Positions 15,201 to 39,200 of a stretch of 64,000 nt of DNA are shown here, piece after piece; within the stretch, counting starts at the first letter, position 1, and every line of letters begins with the position of its first letter. Position numbers and translations under genes: made by a program. This stretch comes from Botryllus schlosseri (Eukaryota): positions 13,394,001 through 13,458,000 of the forward strand of contig CM119371.1 in NCBI GenBank assembly GCA_051294905.1. The letters are read 5' to 3'. The notes beneath the pieces are model-generated. The model ran no database searches. It was not told where the DNA came from and was given only the letters and a program-made list of their open reading frames with translations.

Positions 15201-18200
15201 TAGAGTAACCTCCCTATTGGGTTTTTATCTATTGGTATTGGTACTTGAAAATGCGACCAGAAACTAATAAAAGTGAGGAAAATTAGTATATTAGGAATGC
15301 GAACCATTCGATATCACTAAAAAGAGTTCTAACGGTGGGTTTAACAAGACTTCAACTGGAAACTGAGCAGTCAACACAATGACTTGGACTCGGACTCGAG
15401 TCAATATCCTACGACTCGGACGCGAACCTCTGCTCGAGGACTTGGACTCGTACTTGACTCGGTGGCGAATTGAAAATGACTCGACTTGACTCGAGTCAAA
15501 ACTATAAAAGTAAGATTGACTTGTGACTCGGAACCTTGTGACTTGGTTACAACCCTGGGTAAAATTGAGTAGGCCACTCCGTGGGCTGAGAAAGGTTAAA
15601 AAATATAGCAATATATTTTTAATTACCAATATTATTGACCGATTGAATCATGAATCATGAATTAGGGCGCAGACGTTGCTAATTAGTGTATACAAGACAT
15701 CTCGTGCATGTCGAAGGGGGCTGGTATTGATAAAAAAAACGCAGGTAGGGGTGTAAAGAGAGTTTCAAATGTATCATGTTTAACATTTTGTTCAAAATAT
15801 AACGGTAAATATATATTTTTGGGTAATTAACCGTCACTTTGTCATGCCTCAGTATCAACAGATCCACTGAGCAGTGAGCACCAATTCATGTAATACACTG
15901 CTTCCAATTTTGAAATAAAATCAATACGCTGGATATTCCAAAATTTCTGACTCGGCCCGCCAGCATATTTTTGCTTCTCATTTGGCCCGCGGAGAAAAAT
16001 AATTGCCCACCCCTGCGTTAGAGTAATGGATTGCTATATGTCATCGATATTGATACCAATGTCACCTAAAGTATAAGATTTTAGCAAGTTAAAGCTTAGC
16101 CACTAGATGGCCTAGCGTTATGGTTTTACGTCCTAGCGTCCAGACGTGATAAAGTACTTAGCATTACTACTCCAGTAGCAATAGCTATTTCAGGGACATA
16201 ACAAAAGTAATTGGAGTAGAAAATTAAATGCCTGAAAGGTATTCAACTAAATTGTTTCAAAAGATAGATATGGTCGGGGCGTCACATAGTTATTCAGAGT
16301 GGGGGCGGCTAATTTCGAAATCGAAAGATGTTTCTTCGGGCCGAAAACAAAATGAATACAAAAACTACGTGCAGATCAACCCTTCGAAAATATAAACAGT
16401 TACCACGATAGGAATGGGATAGGAATACGACGTTGTATGTTGTTGCGGCATATGCAACCTCTCATGATACCCACACACACACGATCTGCGCGTATGCATA
16501 CCATGAGTTCGTGATGTACGTATGCCGCTGAACAGGGAAGATGCACAAATAGCCTTGTCAGGATTTCTAAATCTTGCGTCACCTCTACATGCTATCCCGG
16601 TAATGCTGATCGCTAAGCTGTTGAAGCCTGGAAACATCGATCGACAGTATATGACACCGACTCAAAAGATGTTTCACAAGCTGAAGAATGTTCAAGAAAT
16701 GCAATTTCTGTCAAGTGTCGAATCGGGCGACCCTCACCATGATCACAAAGCGCTACGATCTAGCAGACTCTGAGAACTAAATAATTCTAGCAGCATAATA
16801 AGATTAATTAGAGCGTAATGACAGTTATCTAATTATAATCTAACTTCTGAAATGTTTCAATGAAGAAATTGTGATTCCAACGTAATTTTACGCTTTCCTG
16901 AAAATGTCACAGAAGAACTCTATAGTGCGAAACGAGCCAATCATGGTGTACGGGACATTTGCTATTCACATTTGTTATTCCTATGAAAATGAATTCAAAT
17001 TTGATATGAAGTGAGCCATATGTTTGCGAATTAGATATCCTATTCGGATCAGAATGAATAATTATAATCTTAATGAAATTTGGAAAACCGAAAATTTCTC
17101 ATGTCATTTGACTTTGCGACATAATTATGCTGTAAAAATACAAAATTATTTTGCGTTCTTACGCCATTCTAGTACTCGTATACTCTACTGGACTAGGAGC
17201 TGGGTTTGGAATTGAATCAATCGAGTACTGACCACCTCTGCTCACGACCCTGTTTAGGTACCACTATCCAGACATGATTGACCCGGAACAATCGATGTTA
17301 TCGGAAAATCGAATCTCACTGTCTTTCCGTCCCATATCCGCCTGGCTGCAAAATTAATGTCACGCCGACTACAACAGCTGGTGTCAGGTAAGTCGCAACG
17401 TGGTATGAGACCAAACGGGAAACTGTTTCCAGTCCAAATACTTGACGCAATGACAGGTGGAGATGGTAGCCTTCCGTGCACATCCAACCGAAGACAACGA
17501 GGAACAGATAGTGAAGGCATATCGCGACTCCGGTGCATATCGCCTGCAAAATGAAGAACAAAAACATCGTTTCGTCGATTACATACAGCGCAGAGTACAT
17601 TGAACACTCTCGTATTCGACATTTCATGCTGGTTACGTCATATTTTGTGATACGATTGTTGATATACGACGTTCTTTTGAATTCTCTACTGGCTGCTGAC
17701 GATTACCCCTGACGAGTGTCAGCCGAAAATATTCGGGATTATTTCAATATGAATATTCCATTCAATTTTATCAATATTTTAGCCACTTGTTAGTAAATTT
17801 TCATGACGGCCAGGATAATTATTCTCGTGGTAGCATAAACATGTCTCTGAGAGGCCAAGATAGTGGGGTATCCGAAGGGTTAGGGGATCGTGCCCTCCTT
17901 TTCAAAATCCCTGAATTTAAGTTGCTCTCACGCCGGCGACCAACACCATTCGCTAATTCGAGCTACCCGCCAATGCGCTCCTCGAAAACTTGGATTCCAC
18001 GACACCTTGATCAAAGAGAATAGCAGACATGGCGACGCTTAATGCAGTTTTCAAATACCCATTGTCTTCCAGATCTACGCCATGAAATAAACTGCCTTGG
18101 AAGTGATATTCACAATTACAAATCCAAATTGAAAGCAACGCCATAGCTATCCATGTTCTTTATTGGTAAGTGATAGTTTTCTAGCACCACCGTAAAAATG

Positions 18201-21200
18201 TAAGTGTCGATCAATATTTAGATTTTCGAAATAAGCGCGAGAATAACATTTGAATAATATTTGTTATTGTAAATTCTAAATCAGTAGTTGTCAACCCGGG
18301 GTCAGCGGATATTATTTTCAAGAACGGTCATTTTGTTGCTGTATATCACGAGCCGGGAGTTGATATTTGCACAAGACATGTGAGGGTTGCACGATAATTG
18401 AGCCAAATTTGAACTAGAACTTGAGGGGGTCCGCGGGGGTCCGTCACTGTTCAAAAGAGGTCCACGAAGACATGAAGGTTAAGAACCACTGTTCTAAACT
18501 ATTTACGATGAGTTGCGCTATCACAGGTGAGGCTTTGGCCCGTCTGTGCCTTACCTCTCCTTTCACGCTTTATTTTCGAACAATAAATATGAAAATTCAG
18601 TGATTTTGGGAATAAAAATGTTCATAATCTAGTCATTCATAAACATCATTGAAGGTTTCACAATTTCCCTTCACTCATCCCTGACGAAATGTGAGGTAGT
18701 GCCTCACTTGCCTTGCCTAACCCCACGTCACTGACGTATCACACCCTGCAGTGGGTATGTGCTGCTGTGGTGACCATGTTTGACTCCACCTACGCATGTG
18801 GGCACAAAAATATTGCACACGCTACGAATCTCATATATTAGTGTTACTGATACGTCACTAATTTTCAATTTTGACGTAACAGTTGATTGACTTGTGGCTC
18901 TTCGGTCGAAAAAGGTTCCCGGTCCCTGATCTATTGAGACCGTTGTTGACGATTTCAGATTGAATACGTTTTGTACAACAGGAGCAATGTGACCTCCTAT
19001 TCATATGTATCTTCTTTGTGCACAAATATAGATGTTAAATATCGGATTTCCCACACATATTTCTATTGTGCAAAACGCCCCATTTCAGTCTCAGTGCCCT
19101 ACATCACCCAATTTGTCGCTATCACCCTCTTCGAAGCAGTGTTGGGATGACTCGAGTCATGACTTGACTCGAGTCAGACTCGAGTCAACTTTTTCGCATG
19201 ACTTGACTTGACTCGAGTCACTTTGCAAAAATGACTTGACTTGACTTGACTCGGAGCTTCAGAAGTGTGGATTGACTCGTGACTCGGAGCAAAATTTACG
19301 AGTCAATTTCAAGTCATCAAGTAAACGATGTCGATTTAATCTCTGTATCTTGTTTATGTTCGTATTATTCGCGATACGCCGGTGTGACTTGTGAGAGAAA
19401 CCGGTCATTCACTGATTGTACCTTTCACTGACCCCCCTTGTTATATCACAAATAAATTGACCGAAAACGAACTTATGACAGCTTACGTTTATGTACTAAC
19501 AGTAGCATATTCTAATAGCAACGTATCTCTGTTTTCTTATACGGCTCAGTGCTTACATTGAGCAGTGCCCACGTTAACCAACGCTATCGTATGATTTTAA
19601 TCGAACGAATATAGTTTATGCGTTTATATTCTCACGGATGTGTAGATGGGTAGTGTATTATATCATATCAATTTGTTTCAACTTCTCGACGCTTCGTAGT
19701 CGATCATCTATTTTGGCTCACGTATTTGATTAGCTGCTCTACGTCTGCGTGAGCGATACAGAGCGCCCTTTTGCATGTATATTTGGCCTTATACTCGTTA
19801 TTTAATTCAAGATATATGACCAATACATCTGTCTTTTACACATATAGCAAAATGTAATGACTATGAATCATCACACATACTTCGAAAATTCAATTTGACT
19901 TGAATTGTGACTTGACTCGTGACTTGACTTGACTTGACTCGACTTGACTCGAGTCACCTCCAAAAAACGAGTGACTTGACTTGACTCGAGTCACCTTCGA
20001 AAATCGATTGACTTGACTTGACTCGAGTCAAAATGTGCGATGACTCGAAATGACTCGTGACTCGAAGGTAGTGACTTGATCCCAACACTGCTTCGAAGTC
20101 GCCACCACCCTCAGGCGGCACTGGTGCCAACTTTGGAAACAATTGCTTTAACACCATGCAGCGGGATACGTTCCAAACTTCTAAATAAATTTAAAAGTTG
20201 ATGTTTCATTTCTGCATTTAATGGACAAGATTCTAACTTCCGACGCTTGAGAACCACTGATTTAGCTATATTCTCTATGTCATGTATAGATGCCAAAACA
20301 ATTTCAAACGTAACTGTTGCCGTTATTTTTTTTAATCACATTATGCACTTTTGTATTGTATACATTCATAACTGTTTAAAATTTCAATGTGAAGGCGCCT
20401 AACAAAACCGTTTAGGAGTTCGCACCATCCCTGGTGATCAGACCTCTTTGGGATCAAGTAGGAGCGTTTGCAATCGAAAAATAGTGAATATTGGAACAGA
20501 AACAGATGATTCACGTCGGGACAACAGCGCATGTGTACTTACTCTGTTCGTCGTTCTGTCGATACCGACCAGAAACACGAACTGCGCAAGCGCGAAGGTG
20601 ACGCATAAATTCCTATGGATCGAAGTCCGAACCGACTTCAGACCCTCGATCAAAGTGAAAAGGGTGGCGGATACCAACAGACAGGCGACGGAGATGCTAC
20701 ATCCGATCTTCGTAATCATCGTGAGAGCCAAGTTATCGGCGTCACTTAGCTGAAATTGAAGGATAACATGGAAAGTTTCAATTTGACGCACCCGACCCCA
20801 TCGGCCATACTTGAATAGATCTTGCAGCAATTTGCGGGATAAAGGGTGAGCGCGAACGCAGACCCCACTATCAAAAATTCCACGACCGACTCACCCCCAT
20901 TTGGGGCAATCGCCGGAGTCAGCCTTTATCCTGAGTGCAATGGATAGGCCTCGTCCGGGCGGCACCGCATTCATGAGCACGATGAACCGCGTCGTCAAGT
21001 AAGTATGAGTATAGAGTGGCTACGTAAAAGTGCATAATGACTCGTCAATATTTCACTGTTTGCGGTGAGCACGTATGTCCAATGCATTTCTCCTATTTGG
21101 TGAAGACGTTACTGAATTCACTCATTCAAAACATGTAATATCATCTGTTGGCATTAGCTAAAATTACATGTCCTACGCCCGGGCACGGCAACCTTTCGTA

Positions 21201-24200
21201 TGTAGCATGCCAAAATGTCGAAGTATTACCAACTGGCGTACCAAATATTTTTAATTCTGTCACATTTAGCGTTTCAAGCAAGGAACCCTACCAACCGCTT
21301 ATCTGCAGCTTGCAACGGCATCGGTTACGCCAGTGATTCTTAACGTCTACGTCGCGAAGGGTATAAATTTTGGTCGCTACCGCACTAGCCTATCGCTTAA
21401 TGTACGTAATACTTGCATCACTTATTTTTAGATTGATCTATGATTGATCTTCTGCGGTGCCTTTGGTTATTTGCAGGTCCACTCTCTTCGATACCATAGC
21501 CAAAATTGTCGGTTTGATGTCACAATAAGATTGGTCTAACTCTAGATTTGTCTGCAAACCTCCAAATGTCGCGGTAAAGCGGTAAGTTGTCGTTTCCAGA
21601 TATATTGGAATCGCTTACACCAGCAGATATATTGGAATCGCTTACACAGGGGTGTCAAACTCAATTGATGTCGCGGGCCGGATTCAACACTTCAGGTCGC
21701 TTGCGGGACACACCAAAATTCTTCAATCCCAAAATACCTCAATGTCCATGCTCTTATTTATCTTTTGAATACTTCATTAACCAGCCTATATACATATTAG
21801 TATATTACATTATATTACGGATCCTAGGGGTTCTACTCTAGCTGCACCATTATATGCTGATTGGGAGACGGAATACAGTTATAAACCGATAAAATAGTGA
21901 CTTCAACGATGATATAACTTGTTAAATCTCGATGCTTCCTTTGTTTAAGTATTATATTGGCATCAACCCTGCGTATGCGTTGGCAGGAATGCAAAAGATT
22001 TAATTGTAAACGAGGACGTAGGCATTTGCTTCATATTATTTTACCGCGATTCAGGTTTCTCTGGAGGTCGGAGACCTCTATTCTACTTCCCATGTAACCT
22101 ATCAGGGTTTCACATTGGCGTTTTCGCTTCTGTGCTGTGAATAACTAGTTTTTGGTAGGTCGAATGAATTAGCACTGTCTTGCCTTCTCAGAATTGGGTG
22201 TCAATGCCAGCGACATGCTTCTTATGGTAACTAGAAACCACAACACCGTAGTCGGGTGATTATAATGTGGCCTATAAGCAACAAACATCCTCTAGATGTG
22301 CTCTCTTGAAGGACTAATTAATGGAAGTATTTCTTACTAAAAATATCATCATTTATTAGAAATGTGCTAGATAATACACTCATTTTTGAATTTACTCAGA
22401 ATTGCTTCGCGGGCCCGATAAAATCATCTGGCGGGCCAGATGTGACCCGCGGGCCGAATGTTTGACACCACTGGCTTACACGTACCAGACGCGTTGTGGA
22501 GAGATGGCGCAGTGGTATGATCCACGGCTGCAACACCAATGGGTGCGGGTTCGAGTCCGACCGAGGTCGACTTCCGAATTCCGATACCTAAGTGTTGGAG
22601 GTTTACCTAGGCTCCTCCTCGCCACCACATCCGCGTCAGCGGTGTCTTACAAAAGCCTAGAGGCCGTGCTATAAGTCGGCAGTTACGGAAAATAAGAAGA
22701 ATATCGGCCTGGTGTAAATGACCATAGTAGTCGACAAACACCATGAATACCCCAAAACAAACACGTACCAGACGAGACTAAAAGAATATGTCCTTTTGTG
22801 AGACGAACACGATTTAAAATTGGTATTTGACATGGAACTCAATATTTTCCTCGGCGGGTGTCATTCGATGAGTGCGGCTCAAGCTGTGGGTACTTGAATA
22901 CTCGGCTCTGATTATTACGGCACCTGGCGATTGGGCATATCCATGCCTAACGTTTCAGCGATCATGCGTCGGGTATACTACTTTCAACTTGTAGCGTACT
23001 TTGTGGGCCAACCGTTGTAAACAGCACATTGTGTGCTTATTGTGAATCATAAACGGTCACACAAAACCTGGTATCATACTTGACCCACCGCATATCCCAG
23101 TGGCGGCTCGTCCTATAGGGCAACTGGGGCATTGCCCCACCTAAAATTCTGTTCAATAACAATTCATTACCATTTATAGACGCACACCAATCTATATATA
23201 CCGAAATCACAGCGAAAATCGTATTTTTCTTGTCCTTTCGCTTGTAAATGCCCATATATAGCGAAGTCTCAGCGAAAATTGAATTCTCTTCTGTGTTTTC
23301 GCTTTGCGAATGCCTAGCCGGGGCATGCCCCGGTAGCGCTCATAACAAGCTTTCACTGTCTATTCTCTCAAAGTCGCGCACAATAAAGAAACGGTGGTTT
23401 ACTCTCTCCTATTCATAAAATTACCGAGCAACCGGGGCACAATAGCTCTGTGCCCCTAAGGTGTGATGTAACAATCGTATCTATAGCTGAACTCGGTTAC
23501 CGTCATATGCGTTTAGTCGACCTTTGCTGGTATAGGTCGATTTTGATGGTGTTTTACACCATGAAAACTCTTGAAACTTGGTATGTCATGTCGTGATGGT
23601 GGTATTTAACACTGCCCCAAGTTTCAGGGTTTCTACTTAAAGTTTAGGGCAGTAATTCCGTTTCCGAAGTTGATTGTGTGCTGATCCGTCATGTAGCCTA
23701 TCGCAAACAGATTTTACTCAAAAGCCGGTATTGGTATCCATTGATTTTGACGATGTTCAATACTGAGATCGGTTATGACATTTGGAACGGTAAGTCTTAA
23801 TGTTAGTATCGAACGCTGTACCAAGTTTTAAGTTTGTCACTGAACTGTGTTAGTGGTAATTTCGTTTCCTAATTCGAGTGAGAGCTGACTCGTCATTTAT
23901 CGCTAACAGATTATACGCAAAGCCGGTATTGGTCTCTATTGATTTTAACGATGCTCCTTACCTAGATCCGTCATAAGCTTTTGCACGGTATGTCTTGATT
24001 TTAGTATCGAACGCTGTGCCAAGTCTCAAGGTTGACACTCAATGATTAGAGCAGTAATTTCGTTATCAAGGTCGAGTATGGTAGAGATGTGCTCCGATCT
24101 GACAATTTAGCCTACAACGCATTGCGGATTTCACGCAAAAGCCGGTGTATCTGCGGTAACGTTAACTGAGATGATGATATCATTCTCAATTTGCATTCAA

Positions 24201-27200
24201 ATATTAACTTTAATATTATATTCTCCAATGTCAATTTCACCGTGAAATTGTGGCCTTCAAGCCATTTGCTTACAACCCCCTGTCAAGCGCGATAGCTATT
24301 TCGTTTTCGATGGCGGCTAACAGCTGATCACTTGATCAGCCTATTCCTCAGTAAATTTTACAATTAAATAGTATATTCATATTGAAATGAACCCGAATAT
24401 TTTCGGCTGACACTCGTCAGGGGTAATCGTCAGCAACTAGTAGAGAATTGGAAAGAACATTGTATATCAACAATCGTATCACAAAATATGACGTCACCAG
24501 CATGAAATTTCGAATGAGAGAGCGTTCAATGTACTATTTTTAGGTGATACACGAACTCCTTTTGTTGACAGAGTTTTGGTTGGTGTATTTTGATAAAAGT
24601 TGATTCCAAGGCACACAAATGGAATTGTGAACGGCCTCGACCTACGATTCGAAATCGGTCGTCTCGATAATTATTCGCACAAATCGGATTATCCAACAGA
24701 TGTTTGCCGATGGCAGAATTAATTGCCTTTGATCGATCAGCATCAATCTTAAGTGGATGAGTTAAGGGTGAGCTTTTCACATCGCGTGACGCACGTGTTC
24801 TGATAAATCTGGGGACATGTTGGTTTATGCGGTCCTGCAGACGTCTTGACGTTCTTCCCACGTAGCCACAATCACAGTGGCACCTATATTCGTACACTAC
24901 ATTACTTTGTTGAAGTGCAGGAAGCACGTCTTTGCGTGTTGAAGGGAGCAGTTGTGTTGTTGTAAAAATCACATTGGTTTTGACTGTATCGTAACATTTA
25001 CCTACAGCAGAAATCAATTGTTTTTCAAAGCGGGTGGAAATGGGGCCAATCCAAGGTAGATGGATATAAACATCTTTTATTGTTCGTGCGGTGGGCTCTG
25101 TTCGTTTTTCTGCGTTGAATTGCGTTAATTTCCTCTCCATGCCGCGGCTGATGACGTGTTCAGGGTAACCGTTATCAAGTAAGATTTTTCGGATGTAGTC
25201 AAGTTCTAAACTCAGTTTGTTACCCGAACATATCATCAACGCTCTATGCACGAGTGTGCCTATGAGGTTAATTTTTCTGCGCCGAGGACTAAATGAATTC
25301 CAGCGAAGGTATTGGCCTGTGAATGTCGGTTTTCTGAAAACAGACGTTTCAAATTTGTTGGTATTGCGCTTTTCAACTAATACGTCCAGAAATGATAATG
25401 AGTTATTGCGTTCTTTTTCTATTGTGAATTGCAAGGCCGGGTGAAGCGAGTTTAAGCGAATGAGAAATTGGTCACACTCCGATTCATTCCTGAAAATGAC
25501 AAATGTATCATCTACGTATCGGCGGTACAATAGTGGTTTGGCGGACTCACGCTGGGACAGAAGCTCGCCCTCGTAATACCCTACGAAAATATTGGCCAAA
25601 ATAGGTCCCAGGGGACTTCCCATGGCTAAGCCGTCTATTTGGCGAAACATGACCTCGTTAAAGCTAAATTCCACGCAGCAAGTTGCCGCTTGTAAAAGTT
25701 CAACAAAGACGTTACGCGGGATTGATGGTGGCGGTAACTTACCACCGTACAGCGCGTTGGCACAAATATCAATAGTCTCATGCAGCGGAACGTTCGTAAA
25801 AAGACTAGAGATATCAAATGAGCTCAGAAACACGTCTGGATTCGGCAAATCCAGGTTTCGTATTTCACCAGCGAACGTGAACGAATCGCGAACACATTCC
25901 GTGCCGTACAATTCCCGAACCGGTTCCAAAATGTCAATAAGCCATTTTGCCAGCTGATGGTGAGCAGACCCGATCATGGAAAGTATAGGTCTCACTGGGA
26001 CATTGTCTTTGTGAGTTTTTGGCAGTCCGTACATGCGTGGTCTTTGCGATCCCGTCGGTCTGATGGCGCTGTATGTTTCTGCCGTTAGGACACCGTTTTT
26101 CTTCAATGTCAGCAAACGGTTGGTCAGTCGTCTTTCAATTTTAGGTGTATTATCAAATTCCGAAACCGAACCAAGCGAGATAAATTTGGTTTTGTCATGC
26201 AATATTGATTCCATTTTCGAAATGTAGTCAGCTTTGTTCAGAATGACAACACCGGATCCTTTGTCTGGTTTGGTGATGTGGATTTCAGGGTTGGATCGCA
26301 ATGCTTTGATGGCTAGGAAACACTCTTTGTTCATCAGGAAGTCCGCCTTGTCGACCGGGCATCCACAATACGAATGCGCCAAATCTGATAACCGAGCTTT
26401 GAGAGCAGGTATACCCTCGTCTGATTTAGGTTCGTGGTGTTTTAATTGGCCGAGGAGAACTTCAAATTCCGCAAATACCTCCTCATTCTTGACAGTGGTA
26501 GGCGGCAGGCAAAAATTGAGCCCATGGGATAAAACAAATTCTTCAGTCGGGCTTAGCTTATGATCTGATAAGTTGAGTATATTCTTCTTGCTTGGACTTG
26601 CATTGCTACCGAATCGCTGGCTAACTAAGCGGTTAATGCCACGTTCGTTCCTTGTTGAATTCTGCTTTTCTTTGATAGTATCTATCGATGCCAAATAACG
26701 GCAGAAGCGAAATAAGTCGAAGAACGACAGGATTGAACGTACTTCCTTCTGCAGCGATCGACAAACACGGCGGAGAGTAGTAACCAACTTCTCATTCTTC
26801 CCAATCTCGTCATATAAAAACGCTTGTTCCATTCTAGGATTGAGGCGGGCGCGTGATTTTTCTATCCTGCTTTTGATAAATGCTGGTAACGTCTTTTTTG
26901 CGATACAAGCCTTCAAAAAGGCTGTTGTTGATACCGCAGTTCTCAATCTTCCCCTAGTCTTTATCAGCTGGTTTAGGATACGCAACTGACTTTCACTGTA
27001 CCGCTTTCGGAAATATTTGAAGAGCTTCTTGGAGGTACAGAACTTCAATATACAATTAAATAGTATATTCATATTGAAATGAACCCGAATATTTTCGGCT
27101 GACACTCGTCAGGGGTAATCGTCAGCAACTAGTAGAGAATTGGAAAGAACATTGTATATCAACAATCGTATCACAAAATATGACGTCACCAGCATGAAAT

Positions 27201-30200
27201 TTCGAATGAGAGAGCGTTCAATGTACTATTTTTAGGTGGTACACGAACTCCTTTTGTTGACAGAGTTTTGGTTGGTGTATTTTGATAAAAGTTGATTCCA
27301 AGGCACACAAATGGAATTGTGAACGGCCTCGACCTACGATTCGAAATCGGTCGTCTTGATAATTATTCGCACAAATCGGATTATCCAACAGATGTTTGCC
27401 GATGGCAGAATTAATTGCCTTTGATCGATCAGCATCAATCTTAAGTGGATGAGTTAAGGGTGAGCTTTTCACATCGCGTGACGCACGTGTTCTGATAAAT
27501 CTGGGGACATGTTGGTTTATGCGGTCCTGCAGACGTCTTGACGTTCTTCCCACGTAGCCACAATCACAGTGGCACCTATATTCGTACACTACATTACTTT
27601 GTTGAAGTGCAGGAAGCACGTCTTTGCGTGTTGAAGGGAGCAGTTGTGTTGTTGTAAAAATCACATTGGTTTTGACTGTATCGTAACATTTACCTACAGC
27701 AGAAATCAATTGTTTTTCAAAGCGGGTGGAAATGGGGCCAATCCAAGGTAGATGGATATAAACATCTTTTATTGTTCGTGCGGTGGGCTCTGTTCGTTTT
27801 TCTGCGTTGAATTGCGTTAATTTCCTCTCCATGCCGCGGCTGATGACGTGTTCAGGGTAACCGTTATCAAGTAAGATTTTTCGGATGTAGTCAAGTTCTA
27901 AACTCAGTTTGTTACCCGAACATATCATCAACGCTCTATGCACGAGTGTGCCTATGAGGTTAATTTTTCTGCGCCGAGGACTAAATGAATTCCAGCGAAG
28001 GTATTGGCCTGTGAATGTCGGTTTTCTGAAAACAGACGTTTCAAATTTGTTGGTATTGCGCTTTTCAACTAATACGCAATAACTCATTATCATTTCTGGA
28101 CGTATTAGTTGAAAAGCGCAATACCAACAAATTTGAAACGTCTGTTTTCAGAAAACCGACATTCACAGGCCAATACCTTCGCTGGAATTCATTTAGTCCT
28201 CGGCGCAGAAAAATTAACCTCATAGGCACACTCGTGCATAGAGCGTTGATGATATGTTCGGGTAACAAACTGAGTTTAGAACTTGACTACATCCGAAAAA
28301 TCTTACTTGATAACGGTTACCCTGAACACGTCATCAGCCGCGGCATGGAGAGGAAATTAACGCAATTCAACGCAGAAAAACGAACAGAGCCCACCGCACG
28401 AACAATAAAAGATGTTTATATCCATCTACCTTGGATTGGCCCCATTTCCACCCGCTTTGAAAAACAATTGATTTCTGCTGTAGGTAAATGTTACGATACA
28501 GTCAAAACCAATGTGATTTTTACAACAACACAACTGCTCCCTTCGACACGCAAAGACGTGCTTCCTGCACTTCAACAAAGTAATGTAGTGTACGAATATA
28601 GGTGCCACTGTGATTGTGGCTACGTGGGAAGAACGTCAAGACGTCTGCAGGACCGCATAAACCAACATGTCCCCAGATTTATCAGAACACGTGCGTCACG
28701 CGATGTGAAAAGCTCACCCTTAACTCATCCACTTAAGATTGATGCTGATCGATCAAAGGCAATTAATTCTGCCATCGGCAAACATCTGTTGGATAATCCG
28801 ATTTGTGCGAATAATTATCGAGACGACCGATTTCGAATCGTAGGTCGAGGCCGTTCACAATTCCATTTGTGTGCCTTGGAATCAACTTTTATCAAAATAC
28901 ACCAACCAAAACTCTGTCAACAAAAGGAGTTCGTGTATCACCTAAAAATAGTACATTGAACGCTCTCTCATTCGAAATTTCATGCTGGTGACGTCATATT
29001 TTGTGATACGATTGTTGATATACAATGTTCTTTCCAATTCTCTACTAGTTGCTGACGATTACCCCTGACGAGTGTCAGCCGAAAATATTCGGGTTCATTT
29101 CAATATGAATATACTATTTAATTGTATATTGAAGTTCTGTACCTCCAAGAAGCTCTTCAAATATTTCCGAAAGCGGTACAGTGAAAGTCAGTTGCGTATC
29201 CTAAACCAGCTGATAAAGACTAGGGGAAGATTGAGAACTGCGGTATCAACAACAGCCTTTTTGAAGGCTTGTATCGCAAAAAAGACGTTACCAGCATTTA
29301 TCAAAAGCAGGATAGAAAAATCACGCGCCCGCCTCAATCCTAGAATGGAACAAGCGTTTTTATATGACGAGATTGGGAAGAATGAGAAGTTGGTTACTAC
29401 TCTCCGCCGTGTTTGTCGATCGCTGCAGAAGGAAGTACGTTCAATCCTGTCGTTCTTCGACTTATTTCGCTTCTGCCGTTATTTGGCATCGATAGATACT
29501 ATCAAAGAAAAGCAGAATTCAACAAGGAACGAACGTGGCATTAACCGCTTAGTTAGCCAGCGATTCGGTAGCAATGCAAGTCCAAGCAAGAAGAATATAC
29601 TCAACTTATCAGATCATAAGCTAAGCCCGACTGAAGAATTTGTTTTATCCCATGGGCTCAATTTTTGCCTGCCGCCTACCACTGTCAAGAATGAGGAGGT
29701 ATTTGCGGAATTTGAAGTTCTCCTCGGCCAATTAAAACACCACGAACCTAAATCAGACGAGGGTATACCTGCTCTCAAAGCTCGGTTATCAGATTTGGCG
29801 CATTCGTATTGTGGATGCCCGGTCGACAAGGCGGACTTCCTGATGAACAAAGAGTGTTTCCTAGCCATCAAAGCATTGCGATCCAACCCTGAAATCCACA
29901 TCACCAAACCAGACAAAGGATCCGGTGTTGTCATTCTGAACAAAGCTGACTACATTTCGAAAATGGAATCAATATTGCATGACAAAACCAAATTTATCTC
30001 GCTTGGTTCGGTTTCGGAATTTGATAATACACCTAAAATTGAAAGACGACTGACCAACCGTTTGCTGACATTGAAGAAAAACGGTGTCCTAACGGCAGAA
30101 ACATACAGCGCCATCAGACCGACGGGATCGCAAAGACCACGCATGTACGGACTGCCAAAAACTCACAAAGACAATGTCCCAGTGAGACCTATACTTTCCA

Positions 30201-33200
30201 TGATCGGGTCTGCTCACCATCAGCTGGCAAAATGGCTTATTGACATTTTGGAACCGGTTCGGGAATTGTACGGCACGGAATGTGTTCGCGATTCGTTCAC
30301 GTTCGCTGGTGAAATACGAAACCTGGATTTGCCGAATCCAGACGTGTTTCTGAGCTCATTTGATATCTCTAGTCTTTTTACGAACGTTCCGCTGCATGAG
30401 ACTATTGATATTTGTGCCAACGCGCTGTACGGTGGTAAGTTACCGCCACCATCAATCCCGCGTAACGTCTTTGTTGAACTTTTACAAGCGGCAACTTGCT
30501 GCGTGGAATTTAGCTTTAACGAGGTCATGTTTCGCCAAATAGACGGCTTAGCCATGGGAAGTCCCCTGAGACCTATTTTGGCCAATATTTTCGTAGGGTA
30601 TTACGAGGGCGAGCTTCTGTCCCAGCGTGAGTCCGCCAAACCACTATTGTACCGCCGATACGTAGATGATACATTTGTCATTTTCAGGAATGAATCGGAG
30701 TGTGACCAATTTCTCATTCGCTTAAACTCGCTTCACCCGGCCTTGCAATTCACAATAGAAAAAGAACGCAATAACTCATTATCATTTCTGGACGTATTAG
30801 TTGAAAAGCGCAATACCAACAAATTTGAAACGTCTGTTTTCAGAAAACCGACATTCACAGGCCAATACCTTCGCTGGAATTCATTTAGTCCTCGGCGCAG
30901 AAAAATTAACCTCATAGGCACACTCGTGCATAGAGCGTTGATGATATGTTCGGGTAACAAACTGAGTTTAGAACTTGACTACATCCGAAAAATCTTACTT
31001 GATAACGGTTACCCTGAACACGTCATCAGCCGCGGCATGGAGAGGAAATTAACGCAATTCAACGCAGAAAAACGAACAGAGCCCACCGCACGAACAATAA
31101 AAGATGTTTATATCCATCTACCTTGGATTGGCCCCATTTCCACCCGCTTTGAAAAACAATTGATTTCTGCTGTAGGTAAATGTTACGATACAGTCAAAAC
31201 CAATGTGATTTTTACAACAACACAACAGCTCCCTTCAACACGCAAAGACGTGCTTCCTGCACTTCAACAAAGTAATGTAGTGTACGAATATAGGTGCCAC
31301 TGTGATTGTGGCTACGTGGGAAGAACGTCAAGACGTCTGCAGGACCGCATAAACCAGGGGTCGGCAACCTTTTGCTAGTCGCGGGCCAAATTTCGGGTGT
31401 ACAATCTTTGGCGGGCCGGATTGTTTCTTAGTACTATATTTTACGCTCACTTCGGTATATTAACCTACATTGCTGCAATCTCAATCATACCAATCCGAAG
31501 TCACATGTACTTACACTTCAACGACACAGAATAATTGTGACAATTGACGCAGCTTGCTTTGTGAAAGGTTTTCAACTTCTGGAAACAAGTCAGATGAAAC
31601 AAGAATCAGACCCTATTCAAAATGGACGTCCGAAATACGTGATCTTAGCTTGCTCTTCGTGAATTTCATTGTTCAAAGCTGTTGTTCACATGCGTACGTG
31701 CTTCCAAAAATCGATGCAATTTCTTTTGCATTGCTGGTCAAGCTGGGATAAAGACCAATTTCAAGAACGTAGTCTTTGTCAAAGTCATGCAGCGATATGC
31801 TCTTTGTATAAAATTTGTCATTCAATTCAACTGCATCGTATTTCAAAAAGGCCCATTTGAAATTTTCAGGCAATGGTATTGGCGTCCACATTAAACAGAG
31901 TACTGAATAGTCAGAATTCATTTTGTAGAGAAGGAATGTCGGAAAAGAGGGTGAATATTCAGTAGTTAAATTTCGTATCACAGTTACAAATGTAGTGTTG
32001 GTACTAGGTTTTCTCTCCTCCAGTATAGGAAAGTGAGCATAATTTTCTTTGTACTGTTGACATTTCCAGAGTCACAGATTTGTTTTGAATGCGCCTCAAC
32101 ATCTCATGTAGTTGTTTTCCCCTGAAGTTCCAAGTTCAATTTGTTCAGATGTGACGTTGAGAGTTACCCATTTTCGATTACAAGATTATGTATGAGTCGG
32201 CGATATTTGTATTTTCGAGGAAAGTTGCTATTTCATTTCTCAGTTCATACACTCGTGTAAGTATAGCTGCTCTACTCAATGAGCGAACATGACAGATATA
32301 GGCCTACATGACATCGCCATATTGATTCTCTGCTTCTAGTAATATCTGGCGTAACTGGTTCAGTTGATTAGACAAAAATCATATACAGTTTTCACCATTG
32401 TGGCTAATACACTATACAGGTTTTTTTGTCTGGGCACACAATGGCTTCTGGAAAATCAAACTATAGACAGGCTAACTAACATACGGAGGCTATATAGTTA
32501 TCTATAATTGAATAGTTTGAAATTCCGTCATTGCGTCTTGAGATGCTCCAAGCGTTTTTTGAAGCAAAGGAAGAACACGTTTATTGTCACACCCCGTTAG
32601 AGTGATTAACCTTTAAAAAAGCCTGGAACACCTTCGGTTGCGAGATACACCCGATTGATAAGCACTGATCCAGTCTAGTCTATCTCCATCTCCTACTTCA
32701 ACCACCTTCGTTTTATGGCGTAACAATAGACTAATACGATGTATAGGCTACTAATATATTGTAGCAATGCATCTTTTTTCATGCAGCGCTGCACTGCAGA
32801 TTGAAACTCATTATGAAGCGGCGGGCCGTATTCTTGTGATTACTAATTATTATGTCGCGGGCCGGACGATTTCGCTTGGCGGGCCGGATCCGGCCCGCGG
32901 GCCGTAGGTTGCCGACCCTTGGCATAAACCAACATGTCCCCAGATTTATCAGAACACGTGCGTCACGCGATGTGAAAAGCTCACCCTTAACTCATCCACT
33001 TAAGATTGATGCTGATCGATCAAAGGCAATTAATTCTGCCATCGGCAAACATCTGTTGGATAATCCGATTTGTGCGAATAATTATCGAGACGACCGATTT
33101 CGAATCGTAGGTCGAGGCCGTTCACAATTCCATTTGTGTGCCTTGGAATCAACTTTTATCAAAATACACCAACCAAAACTCTGTCAACAAAAGGAGTTCG

Positions 33201-36200
33201 TGTATCACCTAAAAATAGTACATTGAACGCTCTCTCATTCGAAATTTCATGCTGGTGACGTCATATTTTGTGATACGATTGTTGATATACAATGTTCTTT
33301 CCAATTCTCTACTAGTTGCTGACGATTACCCCTGACGAGTGTCAGCCGAAAATATTCGGGTTCATTTCAATATGAATATACTATTTAATTGTATATTGAA
33401 GTTCTGTACCTCCAAGAAGCTCTTCAGTAAATTTTACGCAAAATTCGGTGTTGGTCTGTTCGCATTAATTTTGACAGTGTACCATACCGAAAGGGCCATG
33501 AGGCCACTTCTCGATGATGTCATGTAACAGTGTACTAAGTTTAAAGCTTTCATCCACGTATTTATTCGGTAATATATTTTCCAAAGGCGATTTCGCAGCA
33601 GACCTATAGACAGTAATAAAGCCGTGTGTGTCGTGTTGCAGTCTCCAGTTTCAAGGCCAAAATCTCCTATGCTGTACCGAGACCGAATTTCCGAGGCTGC
33701 TCTTCTTAGTTCTTCAGAATGATGTTTTGGATTCAATATGACAGGCCCAATCTATGAGATAACAATTGCGTATCTGTCCGAACTCGTTGACATTTCCAAT
33801 TAGGCTTACGCTATCTCTCGAGTTATAGTCATTTCCAAGTCTAGTGCGAACATGAACCGTGTTGAATCTTTGTTCCGTACGCCGTTTACGCAGTTACCAC
33901 ACTTCAAGTCACAGCTCACCAGCGGACCTCTCGTGGCACATACGTTAAAATCACTGTTGCCGGCAAATTCATGTTACCGTACCATCATTACGTTACTTGT
34001 TTACGTTGAAAAGCTTCTTGGAGGTACAGAACTTCAATAAACAATTGAACAGTATATTCATATTGAAATGAACCCGAATATTTTCGGCTGACACTCGTTG
34101 GAAAACGCCATTGTGACGTCATCTTAATAAAAAGTCGCTTGCAGCCCTGCCCCACCACCCGATATTGTCACGAGCCGCCACTGGCATATCCTAACTGAAG
34201 CAAGTCTGCGTGGGCATCGGTTTTGGCAAGTTTTCCATGTAACAATTGGTCAGTTTTGAAGTCCAAAAAAGATTTTATCCGGTCAAACTACTACCCTGCA
34301 ATTTGGAGATAAGCCAGCTGCGATTAACACCAGTGGTTTCCAACCTGTGTCACCTCACCCCCCCCCCCCATATTTACGGTCCGAAAAATATAGCACATAA
34401 ACGGGAATTTATTCACTGGACTCTCATCGATGGTGCAGTGAGTATGAAAAGATCATTTTTCCGACTAGGTGCTCGGAAAACCGGTTTACGCGTTCACTCT
34501 CCGTTGAGTTTTCGCTCCCTATCGCTACCCAGTCGTCCCTATGGGATTTTCCGCACCTTGTTTCTCAAAATGGCCCACCAGGGGATGCGATTTTGCCCAC
34601 GTTGGGAGCCAATGAATTAACAGCTAAAATGTATGCAACGCATTGACCACATCTGCTTTTTGGAAATACGTACGTGGGAAATTTTCGGACATACTTTATA
34701 GACTTCTACTTGAAGCAGTTTCGAAAAGTCTTGCAAATCATTACCTCTACTTCTACTTGAGTATTAACGATGACTACTGGACAGCGTCTGATTATATCCT
34801 AATCTTTGTCGCTGGAACAACGCCACATTCATTCATGCATTCATTCATTCCCAATTTCATTCCCTTTCATCAGTTACATACTGTGTTCGCTATACTATTA
34901 TCAAAGTGAGCTATACATTCTATATGCGATTTCCAACCCACGACGCGCTTGACATCAGTCTGCATGATTCACACCCGCCATTATAGGCTACTTACCACAA
35001 CGCCGACGGTATCCATTAATATTGCGAAGTTGGTTAAGTGATTACATTCGCATTCTGTTCGGTTGCCATCCGTGTGCAATACTCTGCACCCTTTCGAGGA
35101 CCAAAACCCTGGGAATGTGTTTCCAGCTATGCGGTGACCTTTTTCCCAGTATACACATCTGGGAAAGTGATATATCAATGGCCGATTAGGTGAACTGACT
35201 GGCTAAGCGGTGAGTATATCATCCACATTGAGTGTATATTTCGAACATCAAAATTGAAGAAATCCCGTCGTGAATATCTAAAGATCACTGCTAGCTGGTA
35301 TGTGGAAGCTCATGGAATCATGGAAATAAAACTGGATACAGTCATTGATACCTCTTGTTCAATTCAATATTGCCAATCCCATTTTTGAAAAGCAGGGCTG
35401 ACATCCACCATGAGCATGGATTCCGAATAGTAGTTGAGAAAAAGAGAACATCAACATTATAACCGAATTTGAATTTTATCTGAATTCGAACGTGGGAATG
35501 GATTTTTTATTAATAATTGATCATTATCATTTCAATGCTACTATTGGAAAACCTGATCAAAATGAACTGGTGTATCTTACTCATTTACACCAACTGGAAC
35601 GGTTGTGAGGGCCGAATTACATACCAGGAAGTACCGCCTGAATGATTTGCACCTCAGGCTGTGGTAAAGATTTCGTACATAGTACTATTTCCACCCATTC
35701 ATTTCCATAAGTCATCATCCATAGGATTTGTTAAGATTGCAGTGAAGCTGAATTCTAGAATCCGGCTTTCAAGCAGGAGAGTATTTGCAATTCATTTGTA
35801 GCAAGCGGATTCGGGGTGGGGTTGGGAAGTCAGTCCTGCACTACAAACCTCGGACTTATTAGACCTTTGGTTATATTTCGCTTCGTGAGTTTCTGGTAAA
35901 ACTGTTACCCTACAAGCAAGACACGAATTCAAAACGCACATAACCGAGGGTATACAATCACTGAAACAATACTTACTTTACACCGATGATATTGGCCTCA
36001 ATATGTTCCTTGTGTTGCAATGATATAATCACTTTCTCTCTTTTGAACTGCCCGGCATAAGCTGGTCGTATGGATGCCGCTAAAATTCTGGTCACAATTT
36101 TCGATGTCGACGTTGCATTTTCAATACTTTCATTGACAGGATTTTGTGGTGCTTTCGCAAATGTTCTGCCTTCTGAAAATAAGTCCCAATCGATCAGTAC

Positions 36201-39200
36201 ATGTGAGCAAATACCACAATGTATGTAAATGGATCAAAACCTCACAAATATAATTTCTTTATTCGCAATTGAATAACATATTTATATTGAAATACGCCGA
36301 AATGTTTTAGCCTGACACTCGTCAGGGGTAATCGTCAGCAAGTTAGCATGAATATGTTATTCAATAGTATTGAAATCCCATCTCTTCAAATTATTCAGAA
36401 TTAAAACAATAAGTACTCCGGCTTGAAACACTGCTGTTGTAAAAGAGGAGTATTTTAAAGTTACGCTGAGTGTGTGATTCAACAATGCATAGCCTACTGA
36501 CTGTCTGGAAACATCCGTGCACTTGTTATTAAAGCACACCAACGACCAGCATAAATGTTAACGTCATGCAGAAAGCAAAATCACTCAAGAATATACTTTT
36601 CTCACGCAGCAGCCGTTCCAAGCTCTCGTACAAAATGAAAACAATGTCAACTTTTCCGCCCACAATAGGTTCTACAGGTATCAACGCTGATCCATACTTC
36701 GCAATGCTTGAGGATATGTTTATTCTCTTTATGGCAGCTGTGGCGACACATGACGTCATCTGGAATAAGTGATGAATAATACTTCAATTTAAAATAAAAT
36801 TATATATGTAATAATTAATTGCCTAAAGATGAATGAATGGTAACATTGGAATCATGGCGTATATAATAGTGCATTAGGTCGATTGTGCCTTTGGCGCTGA
36901 ATTATGCAAGATTTCTACATCGTCATGGTCACATATGTTCATAAACTGAAGAGTTTTATGGTGGAATTCGTGAATTATCATCTTTTGTCTTCTGCTAGAA
37001 TACATCTCACTTCACGCTCGATTTCCTTCACCCTATTGCAACTAGACCAGTGACTCCTATCCTCTTGGAAACCACTGAACCACCCGACAATCACCATATG
37101 TATGCCTTCATTGAATTCTTCGTAGTTGGAAAATTAAACTGTTCTTCTTTCAGTAATTTTATATCAGGCTAAGCGTAAAAAAAACGGAATGAAATGCGTC
37201 TTTATTTCATTATCACAGTTATAGAAGATTTGAATTGTAATCTAGTTAAGGCACTGTAATCCACAACAAATCATTCAGGAAGATAAAAATCGACATATTT
37301 CCGAACAATTATAGCCCAGCGACACGGCAACGAGTGATTCACACCGAGTTTCCAATGAGCGGCAATGAAGTGTCAGGACGAAATGAACCAGTTACCTTTT
37401 AGGAGATAATTTAAGGTTTGCCGGACTTCAGATTGGTAAATGCCACTTTCATATCATTTTTGTAGCAAAATCTGCTGCCTTCTTTCATTTTCATATTACT
37501 CATACACGTGTAGGACTGATCTAGCAGACATCTTGAAGCAAACGCTATTGGCATCTCAAAGCCTTGACATCCGACAAACCCCTGAGACTGATTCACTGAT
37601 ACTCTTGAATTCGATCGCACCCGTATTAAGAACCATTGGAGCAGACATTTAAATTTGAGGATAAATAATATCGGGTTAACATACGACCCGGTAATTAAAT
37701 AAGCTGGTTCGAGGTTCGGAACTAGAAGATTGCTGTCATTGCAACATTCATTCCATTATTACATAAATTGATATAATAAATAGAATTCAGGCATACCTAT
37801 CTAGTTTTTGCCATACAAGTGGAAGTTCCTGAAATTCTGGACCTGTCAGCCTTCGCCAACCAACAATAAAGTCCAAACTGTGACTCAATAAACCTACACG
37901 ATATATTAAAACAGTGTATTTGCCGATTTCCACCAGCTCGTAAACTGCATACCAAGTAAATAGCACTTTCTCGCGCAGAAACTTATCCCAAAAGTATTTT
38001 CGACTTATCAAAATCCAAAGTTCAAACAGTAAGTATAGTTGTGCCTAAATAACTGTTCATGCAGAAATAGAATTACTTTAACGGCGAAAACGCTTGAGCA
38101 AGTATTACAGGTAGGCAAAACCGACTTGGGTAATAGAAAAAAATCGAAATACTTCGTGACGGATCACCTATGATAAAGATCGAGTCTCTGTGCCAACATC
38201 ATACCTGAATCACCGCATTTGACCCCATCAAAATCTCAGTCTTGGTGTTGTTAAAAAACGACGCTTGTAAAAAAGCTGCGCTTTCTAGAGTGTTAGATAT
38301 CAGTTCTCCGTGACTTGAAATATTCTGAAACACGGAAGGTTTAGGCGTTTTGTCCCGGTCTTCTACGATGAACGTACATGGGATAGCGCCCTTACGTGTT
38401 GCAGTTCATCCCAAGCTGCCGAATTCCTCTCGCTGAGCAGGCCGTCGACCGTTTTCACAACAGATTTGGCAATTTCGCCGGCAACTTTTCCATCACGTAC
38501 AACCCCCGAGGACGCAAGCTCTATCAATCTGCGGGAAAACATCAAATACTCGTGAACGTATTGAAAACAGTGATTCTCAAACTTATCAGAAGGGTTTGTT
38601 TAGAAACGCGGGTTAATGAACGTGAAAGTCGCAGCCTGTTTTCATGAATGATTATTATTTGAGCACTTGATTAATATATATATACTTGATTTACGATTTC
38701 CGTCATGAAAATCTTTTTTTTCCCACTGTTATCTAGCTCAAAGTAAAGTATACATTCTGGCTGGAGTGCTGGGTTCGTCTCAGGGCCCAATCGCGTATTT
38801 TGTCCTCTAATTTAGAACTACTCACGACCCTCATTTCAATGCACGAAATGACAATATAAGTTCCGAACGAATTCATTTATGGTATCTCTTGTTGATAATA
38901 AGGGTGACAACATTGGTTGTCGATTTTTAGAGAATTTGCATAAATTGATTCTGGAATGTAAGTGATTTGAAAACATAGATGGTAATAAATGTTTTTCCAA
39001 ATGTCATAAAATTAAATATGTAATATCCTAGAAAAAGATGTAACTACAGTCGACTCCACTTCATTCCAGCATCGGATAGCCCGGATGACCGCTTTATTCG
39101 GTCAAAATGCTCAGAAACGGAAAAAGTGAAAATTACAAGTAAAAAACGCCGGTTGATTCGGACAATTATCCGCTGAATTCGAGCACAGGTTGCAATTTCT

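Follow-up and report, generated by a model that had tools for sequence, protein, structure and literature searches.

What is the short motif that marks the unit boundaries of a Penelope-like element in Botryllus schlosseri, and does the RNA of the element cut itself there? The motif lies in a 64,000-nucleotide (nt) stretch of contig CM119371.1 (positions 13,394,001 to 13,458,000; hereafter the window), where a first-pass annotation had read it as the minimal type I hammerhead ribozyme of a Penelope-like element, with a palindrome as its helix III and a predicted cut 14 nt before a start codon. These points hold. The letters at 29051-29107 are exactly as that annotation gave them, all conserved hammerhead core positions are present in type I order (29065-29090, by direct reading), the motif lies inside the pseudo-long terminal repeat (pseudo-LTR) of the element, helix III is only the palindrome AAUAUU, and the distance from the predicted cut to the ATG at 29105 is 14 nt. 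What sets the motif apart is helix II. Helix I has 4 base pairs (bp; ACCC/GGGU), and the local hairpin in the place of helix II amounts to 1 bp (G10.1:C11.1) with a 7-nt loop, short of a hairpin of at least 2 bp. Six bases of this loop, GUCAGC, pair with GCUGAC, which stands 4 bases upstream of helix I (Table 1). On balance we think it probable that this is a pseudo-LTR type I hammerhead whose helix II is supplied by a pseudoknot, carried by a young and abundant Penelope-like element with a putative C-terminal endonuclease.

Compensatory change in related elements

Is the pairing between loop II and the upstream strand kept in related elements? Relatives of the element (80 loci on metagenome contigs, 14 in a genome collection) were scanned with a hammerhead descriptor that recovers all four exact copies of the window; no relative was found in a viral contig collection. 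Pairs were counted by structure-aware scripts; MAFFT misregistered the upstream strands of three of the lineages (L031, L045 and L064). An architecture like that of the window, in which the two strands of helix II are split, was present in 10 loci, 130-200 nt past open reading frames (ORFs) whose proteins are 47-65% identical to that of the window. Read from the 5' end, its parts are a 6-nt strand, a linker of 4-5 nt starting with G, helix I, the core box and G; one nucleotide, a second 6-nt strand, C, GAA, the palindrome, the cut site and helix I follow. The window, L031, L045 and the L051 family share the string 'G U' + 6 nt + C, and the linkers of the five lineages are GAUU, GUUUU, GAUAA, GAUG and GUAC.

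The pairing itself is complete in every lineage while its letters change. It is 6/6 Watson-Crick in the window (GCUGAC/GUCAGC), in L031 (UCCGAC/GUCGGA), in L045 (UGACGC/GCGUCA) and in the L051 family (UCUGAC/GUCAGA), and 5/5 in L064 (GCAUU/AAUGC). When the upstream 30 nt were shuffled 20,000 times per lineage, a run as long was obtained 203, 84, 179, 275 and 1,005 times, respectively. Copy by copy, 9 of the 13 that were tabulated have 6/6 Watson-Crick pairs and the other four have one mismatch (5/6); the plus-strand copy of L037 has a deletion within the pseudoknot strand. Helix I covaries as well, as expected of a member of the class (CAUACU/AGUAUG, CCCA/UGGG, UCCC/GGGA and ACAG/CUGU in the other four lineages), and helix III is again a palindrome in the relatives, either AAGCUU or AAAGCUUU. 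Helix I, the pseudoknot pairing and the palindrome are thus all conserved by compensatory change. The complementarity of GCTGAC and GTCAGC pointed out by the first-pass annotation is borne out, and, judged by comparison of sequences across lineages, the pseudoknot is real.

More distant relatives look different. At 13 loci with 30-44% protein identity, helix II is a hairpin, 6-7 bp long at 12 of the loci and within 4-7 bp at all, and every one has an unpaired base after A9. Within the genome collection, hairpin-type hammerheads were found at 4 of the 14 loci and the split type at none. As the split form occurs in the closer relatives and the hairpin form in the more distant ones, the split form marks a subclade.

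Covariation within the B. schlosseri genome was a further candidate, and it was rejected. A pattern that excludes the family's own loop gave 65 matches against 26 in the control; 20 of the 30 matches that were fetched are decayed copies of the family, and only one (L131) is partly compensated in the upstream strand. The near-total lack of compensation in the decayed copies means that variation within the family is neutral decay and uninformative on structure.

The upstream box GCUGACGA is itself a repeat of the core CUGACGA, and this duplication admits another explanation: upstream GCUGAC would be its by-product, and loop II would pair with the core CUGAC, leaving the ribozyme dead or switched off. 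In the family of the window, core and loop do pair 5/5, and the resulting hairpin is part of the minimum-energy fold. This pairing is, however, not conserved in the relatives: the in-register patterns are uWWWx (L051), WuWWu (L031) and xxxxx (L045), and in L045 our reading of the sequence finds at most 3 bp in any other register, while the pairing between upstream strand and loop is 6/6 in all four (window, L031, L045 and L051). Moreover, the upstream strand is no copy of the core box in L031 and L045, and the pseudoknot helix is computed to be more stable than the competing hairpin (-7.4 versus -5.4 kcal/mol). We therefore regard pairing of the loop with the core as an improbable explanation, and a pseudoknot with the upstream strand as the better one.

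The element and its copies

Table 1. Parts of the motif at 29051-29107, and the element's ORFs and other motif copies in the window
Feature	Position	Strand	Remarks
Pseudoknot 5' strand (predicted), GCUGAC	29051..29056	+	4 nt 5' of helix I; 6/6 complementary to 29074-29079
Linker, GAUU	29057..29060	+	joins pseudoknot strand and helix I
Helix I 5' strand, ACCC	29061..29064	+	pairs with GGGU, 29091-29094
Core box, CUGACGA (C3 U4 G5 A6 C7 G8 A9)	29065..29071	+	CUGANGA consensus; direct reading
Helix II region	29072..29080	+	G10.1, 1-nt linker U, pseudoknot 3' strand GUCAGC (29074-29079), C11.1
Core G12 A13 A14	29081..29083	+	direct reading
Helix III, palindrome AAUAUU (A15.1 ... U16.1)	29084..29089	+	self-complementary, 3/3
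C17	29090	+	predicted cleavage 29090/29091, from hammerhead numbering
Helix I 3' strand, GGGU	29091..29094	+	direct reading
RT/endonuclease ORF, shortened to 757 aa by inverted-repeat insertion	29105..31378	+	
Second plus-strand hammerhead motif with pseudoknot strand	33318..33361	+	core match; identical 57-nt span
Hammerhead motif with pseudoknot strand, 5' of intact 848-aa ORF	27083..27126	-	
Intact 848-aa ORF	24526..27072	-	RVT_1; C-terminal GIY-YIG motif by alignment
Hammerhead motif with pseudoknot strand, 3' of 848-aa ORF	24381..24424	-	element end 24359, 36 nt beyond cut
Solo 5'-truncated copy, 90% identical	17594..17771	+	hammerhead motif with one distal helix I mismatch
Copy with 5' truncation inside hammerhead core	34006..34098	-	
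Old diverged copy	36266..36341	-	G12 lost, one pseudoknot pair broken

The motif sits between tandem reverse transcriptase (RT) ORFs. The first-pass annotation had given the element an ORF of 848 amino acids (aa); it is intact on the minus strand, and the plus-strand copy is cut short by an insertion. The protein has an RT domain (Pfam RVT_1, E = 7.8e-9, residues 408-552) and hundreds of homologues at 40-64% identity. Pfam GIY-YIG does not match the ORF of the window at E ≤ 1 but matches two homologues (59% and 42% identical) near their C-termini, and the GIY-YIG motif residues Y727, C731, C733, Y737, G739, T741 and H752 are invariant in an alignment of 14 proteins.

With up to 3 mismatches allowed, the window has five matches to the 34-nt core motif, four of them exact (24391-24424 and 27083-27116 on the minus strand, 29061-29094 and 33328-33361 on the plus strand) and one with a single mismatch (17705-17738, plus strand); none of 100 shuffles contained a match. 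The four identical copies and the near-intact solo copy of the first-pass annotation were thus recovered: the 57-nt span 29051-29107 is the same in all four, and the solo copy at 17695 differs from it at 2 of 57 positions. The start coordinates given there are those of the upstream GCTGAC strand and not of the hammerhead proper, and two further copies, in the last two rows of Table 1, were absent from it. Its spacing of 2,692 nt between neighbouring copies is right on the minus strand; on the plus strand the two copies are separated by 4,267 nt, the result of an inserted 1,565-bp inverted-repeat element (31357-32921).

How common is the motif beyond the window? In the 495-Mb genome, the 20-nt core has 14,273 matches at up to 2 mismatches (control, 1), and the 44-nt motif that includes the upstream strand has 2,539 exact matches (control, 0). 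With thousands of exact copies, the family must be young and very abundant. The copies form partial tandems with an inverted 5'-truncated neighbour, their 5' truncation is variable and a tail of 30-40 bp is optional; the same arrangement has been reported for Penelope-like elements (Craig 2021).

Several neighbouring features were observed. Two copies of the element lie head to head as a perfect inverted repeat of 3,256 nt (24821-28076 and 28101-31356, with a 24-nt spacer), and exact hammerhead motifs often occur genome-wide as minus/plus pairs roughly 60-340 nt apart; the repeat looks like the usual inverted 5'-truncated partner of Penelope-like elements rather than an assembly artefact. The insertion at 31357-32921, which interrupts the plus-strand ORF, has terminal inverted repeats (GGGGTCGGCAACC... 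and ...GGTTGCCGACCC) and the repeated GCATAAACCA at both flanks, and is probably a non-autonomous DNA transposon. Within the pseudo-LTR, about 70 nt 5' of the hammerhead motif, there is a perfect palindrome, TGACGTCA (28989-28996), which we take to be the cAMP-response-element consensus and which is possibly part of an internal promoter of the element. Just past the 3' end of the minus-strand element are three tandem units of ~200 nt (23517-24077) that are 60-77% identical, and farther away lies a full-length gene for U1 spliceosomal RNA (20841-21006, minus strand; 121.7 bits, E = 3e-30), a mark of eukaryotic DNA.

Proposed fold, cleavage and the copied unit

How could a hammerhead with a single base pair in its hairpin helix II fold? 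Without the pseudoknot, the hammerhead fold is computed at +5.2 kcal/mol. In pseudoknots, one nucleotide is enough to span the deep groove of a 6-7-bp helix, so the pseudoknot helix can stack on G10.1:C11.1 and act as helix II. In the fold that we propose, the 6-bp pseudoknot helix would be stacked on this pair, with the lone U crossing the deep groove, and would supply the missing helix II, while the 4-nt linker would tie together the far ends of helices I and II, a task that loop-loop contacts perform elsewhere. The first-pass annotation had suggested that the pseudoknot replaces the usual loop-loop contact; this is right insofar as the pseudoknot would tie helices I and II, but it is incomplete, since with a hairpin of one base pair the pseudoknot must also supply helix II. 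A second copy is needed too, because a helix III that consists of a palindrome only cannot be closed by one copy. In an RNA that carries two copies, the cores would both fold, with their palindromes paired to each other, and cleavage is predicted after the C17 of each (C29090 in this copy).

Several observations weigh against such an active ribozyme. The minimum-energy nested fold (71 nt; -15.5 kcal/mol, z = -1.6) consists of three local hairpins, in which both the core and the GAAA/cut site are tied up, and the palindrome duplex (AAUAUU)2 is computed at only -0.2 kcal/mol. In vitro cleavage by the published minimal hammerheads of Penelope-like elements is poor (Cervera & de la Peña 2014, PMC4209133). 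In the L051 family, C at core position 3 is replaced by U in 9/9 copies from six loci (L032, L033, L037, L051, L053 and L094), with G8 unchanged and with helix I, the pseudoknot and the palindrome kept, which hints that the fold may serve a purpose other than catalysis; either U3-G8 is tolerated in this family, or the fold has a non-catalytic role, such as recognition of the 3' region of the template. As compensation was not seen within the genome, the covariation comes from four or five related lineages on metagenome contigs. Finally, the Rfam covariance models do not back the first-pass reading: the hammerhead models had no match at the gathering score in the whole window, and no hammerhead was among the matches at E ≤ 10 in 28950-29200 (251 nt).

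The silence of Rfam is also what could be said for a merely accidental resemblance to a hammerhead. Yet the core is complete, the motif occupies the pseudo-LTR of an element that encodes an RT, the helices covary in relatives, and the genome controls gave 0 to 1 matches where the motif gave thousands. The comparative data already exclude chance, and we give it next to no credence.

Does cleavage define the unit that is copied? Thirty genomic copies, sampled by a 20-mer 5' of the cut, were aligned to the unit of the element. Every one of them (30/30) is continuous across the predicted cut, which adds to the points against an active ribozyme, and their 3' ends lie 25 to 74 nt beyond it: 18 copies end at +25 to +41, 2 at +52 and 10 at +64 to +74, while none of the 30 ends at the cut. 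The 5' ends are scattered. With all 30 copies uncut at the junction, the RNA that was reverse transcribed was uncut at this hammerhead. The template RNA would thus run through the ribozyme, and copying would start 25-74 nt downstream of the cut. Cutting at the hammerhead does not define the reverse-transcribed unit. Furthermore, the distance from cut to start codon is 14 nt in the window and in L031, 3 nt in the L032/L051 family and ~41 nt in L045; as it varies among the four lineages, a leader of exactly 14 nt is not conserved as a product.

Three raw RNA runs (one bulk and two single-cell) and one contig set were aligned to 28400-29800. In the three raw runs read ends did not pile up at 29090/29091, and no other position in the interval was listed as a common start or end of molecules, though 5'-OH ends tend to be missed by ordinary library preparation and a lone copy would not be expected to cleave. 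The depth of RNA was highest across the cut site (~200 in X23), again not what an active ribozyme would suggest. It was confined to about 28964-29151 (165-206 in the bulk run), within the last ~200 nt of the element (28964-29160), and was equal in both orientations; 96% of the reads of the bulk run continue into unrelated sequence. The bulk run did not cover the ORF region 29199-29762 at all and the two single-cell runs hardly covered it, the ORF being near-silent in the runs sampled. Given this short depth in both orientations and the unrelated continuations, the reads derive mostly from short, truncated copies embedded in other transcripts. At 28963 we observed 43 reads and one contig with a common foreign upstream sequence, which may belong to an abundant host transcript or to a derivative element. 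The first-pass annotation had envisaged that tandem copies dimerise and release a 2,692-nt RNA with a 14-nt leader. Release of such a unit is not supported, as all 30 sampled copies are uncut, the length of the leader varies, read ends do not pile up and the palindrome duplex is weak.

The same data raise the possibility that the hammerhead-shaped fold is kept mainly as a structure near the 3' end of the template, which the RT would recognise or position in target-primed reverse transcription, and that cleavage is incidental or vestigial. In all the sampled copies the fold is continuous across the cut, and the insertion ends 25-74 nt beyond it; the two main classes of 3' ends (+25 to +41 and +64 to +74) fit the tail and the internal initiation described for Poseidon (Frangieh 2024, PMC11167929); the L051 family retains the helices and the pseudoknot despite U3; and read ends do not accumulate at the cut. 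On the other hand, every base of the catalytic core is kept in the window, L031, L045 and L064 while the helices change, and a mere binding site would not require an invariant core. The palindrome of helix III, sensible for a dimeric ribozyme, is kept as well, and recognition by the RT is only putative for this element. We consider a purely structural role possible but rather doubtful, and continue to favour a hammerhead ribozyme with a helix II supplied by the pseudoknot, for which dimeric cleavage would not set the limits of the copied unit.

Comparison with known hammerheads and Penelope-like elements

We tentatively suggest, as one possibility among others, that a subclade of Penelope-like elements swapped the hairpin helix II for a helix formed with its 5' flank, which would yield a 'split stem II' ribozyme of distinct topology, missed by Rfam and by the published stem/loop descriptors. 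Rearranged hammerheads may not be limited to this subclade. By eye, we read the 3' ends of three Naiad consensus sequences (supplement of PMC8557442) as block-permuted C-S-G hammerheads, with a helix I of CUUA/UAAG, a core box, a helix II of GUCCC/GGGAC or GUUCC/GGAAC, a helix III of ACGAGC/GCUCGU or ACGGA/UCCGU, and a covarying pseudoknot to a stretch 5' of helix I. Naiads have been reported to be without canonical hammerheads, and C-S-G hammerheads are represented by only two metagenomic examples (Eckert 2023, PMC10085705). The C-S-G pattern had no match in the loci of the relatives or in the genome of the window, and a link between Naiads and C-S-G hammerheads was not found in the literature search. 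If rearranged hammerheads are common in Penelope-like elements, this could explain both the 'HHR_core' orphans and the reported lack in Naiads, and hammerheads would be near-universal in this class of retroelements. The motif of the window shows that surveys based on stem/loop descriptors or covariance models miss part of the hammerhead diversity of retroelements, and claims of hammerhead-free clades may therefore need re-checking with methods aware of pseudoknots and permutations.

As to the role of hammerheads in Penelope-like elements, even mere parasitism of the elements has been suggested (Craig 2021). The present family is well suited as a test case: identical young copies number in the thousands, the proposed fold needs a pseudoknot of 6 bp, which designed mutations can break and restore, and the template RNA, to judge from the genomic copies, is uncut at the 3' hammerhead.

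How does the motif compare with hammerheads known from this class of elements? Every Penelope-like element examined by Cervera & de la Peña (2014, PMC4209133) was reported to have minimal hammerheads in its pseudo-LTR, with dimers as the presumed active form. Ours resembles them in its site in the pseudo-LTR between tandem ORFs, in a helix I of 4-5 bp, in keeping G10.1:C11.1, in a palindromic helix III that implies dimers, and in its many solo and head-to-head copies. Unlike their consensus, with a hairpin helix II of 6-8 bp and an unpaired base between A9 and 10.1, it has a 1-bp hairpin and, as in the 10 related loci, the split form, the 5' strand of helix II being placed upstream of helix I.

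For the biology of copying, the closest parallel is Poseidon of Anolis, in which catalytic mutants of the hammerhead had no effect on insertion in vitro (Frangieh 2024, PMC11167929). Reverse transcription starts downstream of the hammerhead and inside the next ORF in both elements, two start sites yield an optional tail, and RNA-seq ends were not seen at the cut. The two differ in distances and in helix II: in Poseidon the cut falls within the ORF, at 26 bp, and copying begins at 111-118 bp of that ORF, whereas the present cut precedes the ATG by 14 nt and the copies end at +25 to +74 from the cut, and the Poseidon hammerhead is described with a stem II and a loop II (PMC11167929).

Our search of the literature did not find the motif string. 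Lünse, Weinberg and Breaker are said to have gathered, in 2017, roughly 150,000 variants of the minimal type I hammerheads of Penelope-like elements. In the excerpts of the literature examined, no description of a pseudoknotted Penelope hammerhead was found; the 2017 variants may include the form.

Beyond Penelope-like elements, non-neighbouring strands that form core stems are known from the SGC and CSG hammerheads (Eckert 2023, PMC10085705), and there, too, pseudoknots are created in this way and a helix brings stems I and II together. In contrast to those permutations, the three conserved blocks here are in the ordinary type I order (C, G, S), and only the 5' strand of helix II beyond position 10.1 is displaced. 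As the core box of the Eckert permutations stays attached to both stems, they do not cover the present case.

The nearest structural relatives are the pseudoknotted hammerheads of Perreault 2011 (PMC3088659), a study in which some 40% of hammerheads, across all three types, have stems I and II joined by a pseudoknot. As there, a Watson-Crick helix of ~6 bp joins the stem I side to the stem II side, and the covarying pairing of at least 4 bp between the stem I side and the loop of stem II is found here as well, with 6/6 pairs in four lineages and 5/5 in the fifth. One example in that work combines a stem II of 1 bp with a 6-bp pseudoknot on which it depends, and compensatory mutants restored its activity. 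That ribozyme is of type II, bacterial or metagenomic, monomeric and endowed with a real helix III, whereas the motif described here is of type I, has a palindrome in place of helix III, belongs to a eukaryotic retroelement and is known from its sequence. Thus, a pseudoknot that links stems I and II is known in principle, and what is new is this structural variant in a Penelope-like element.

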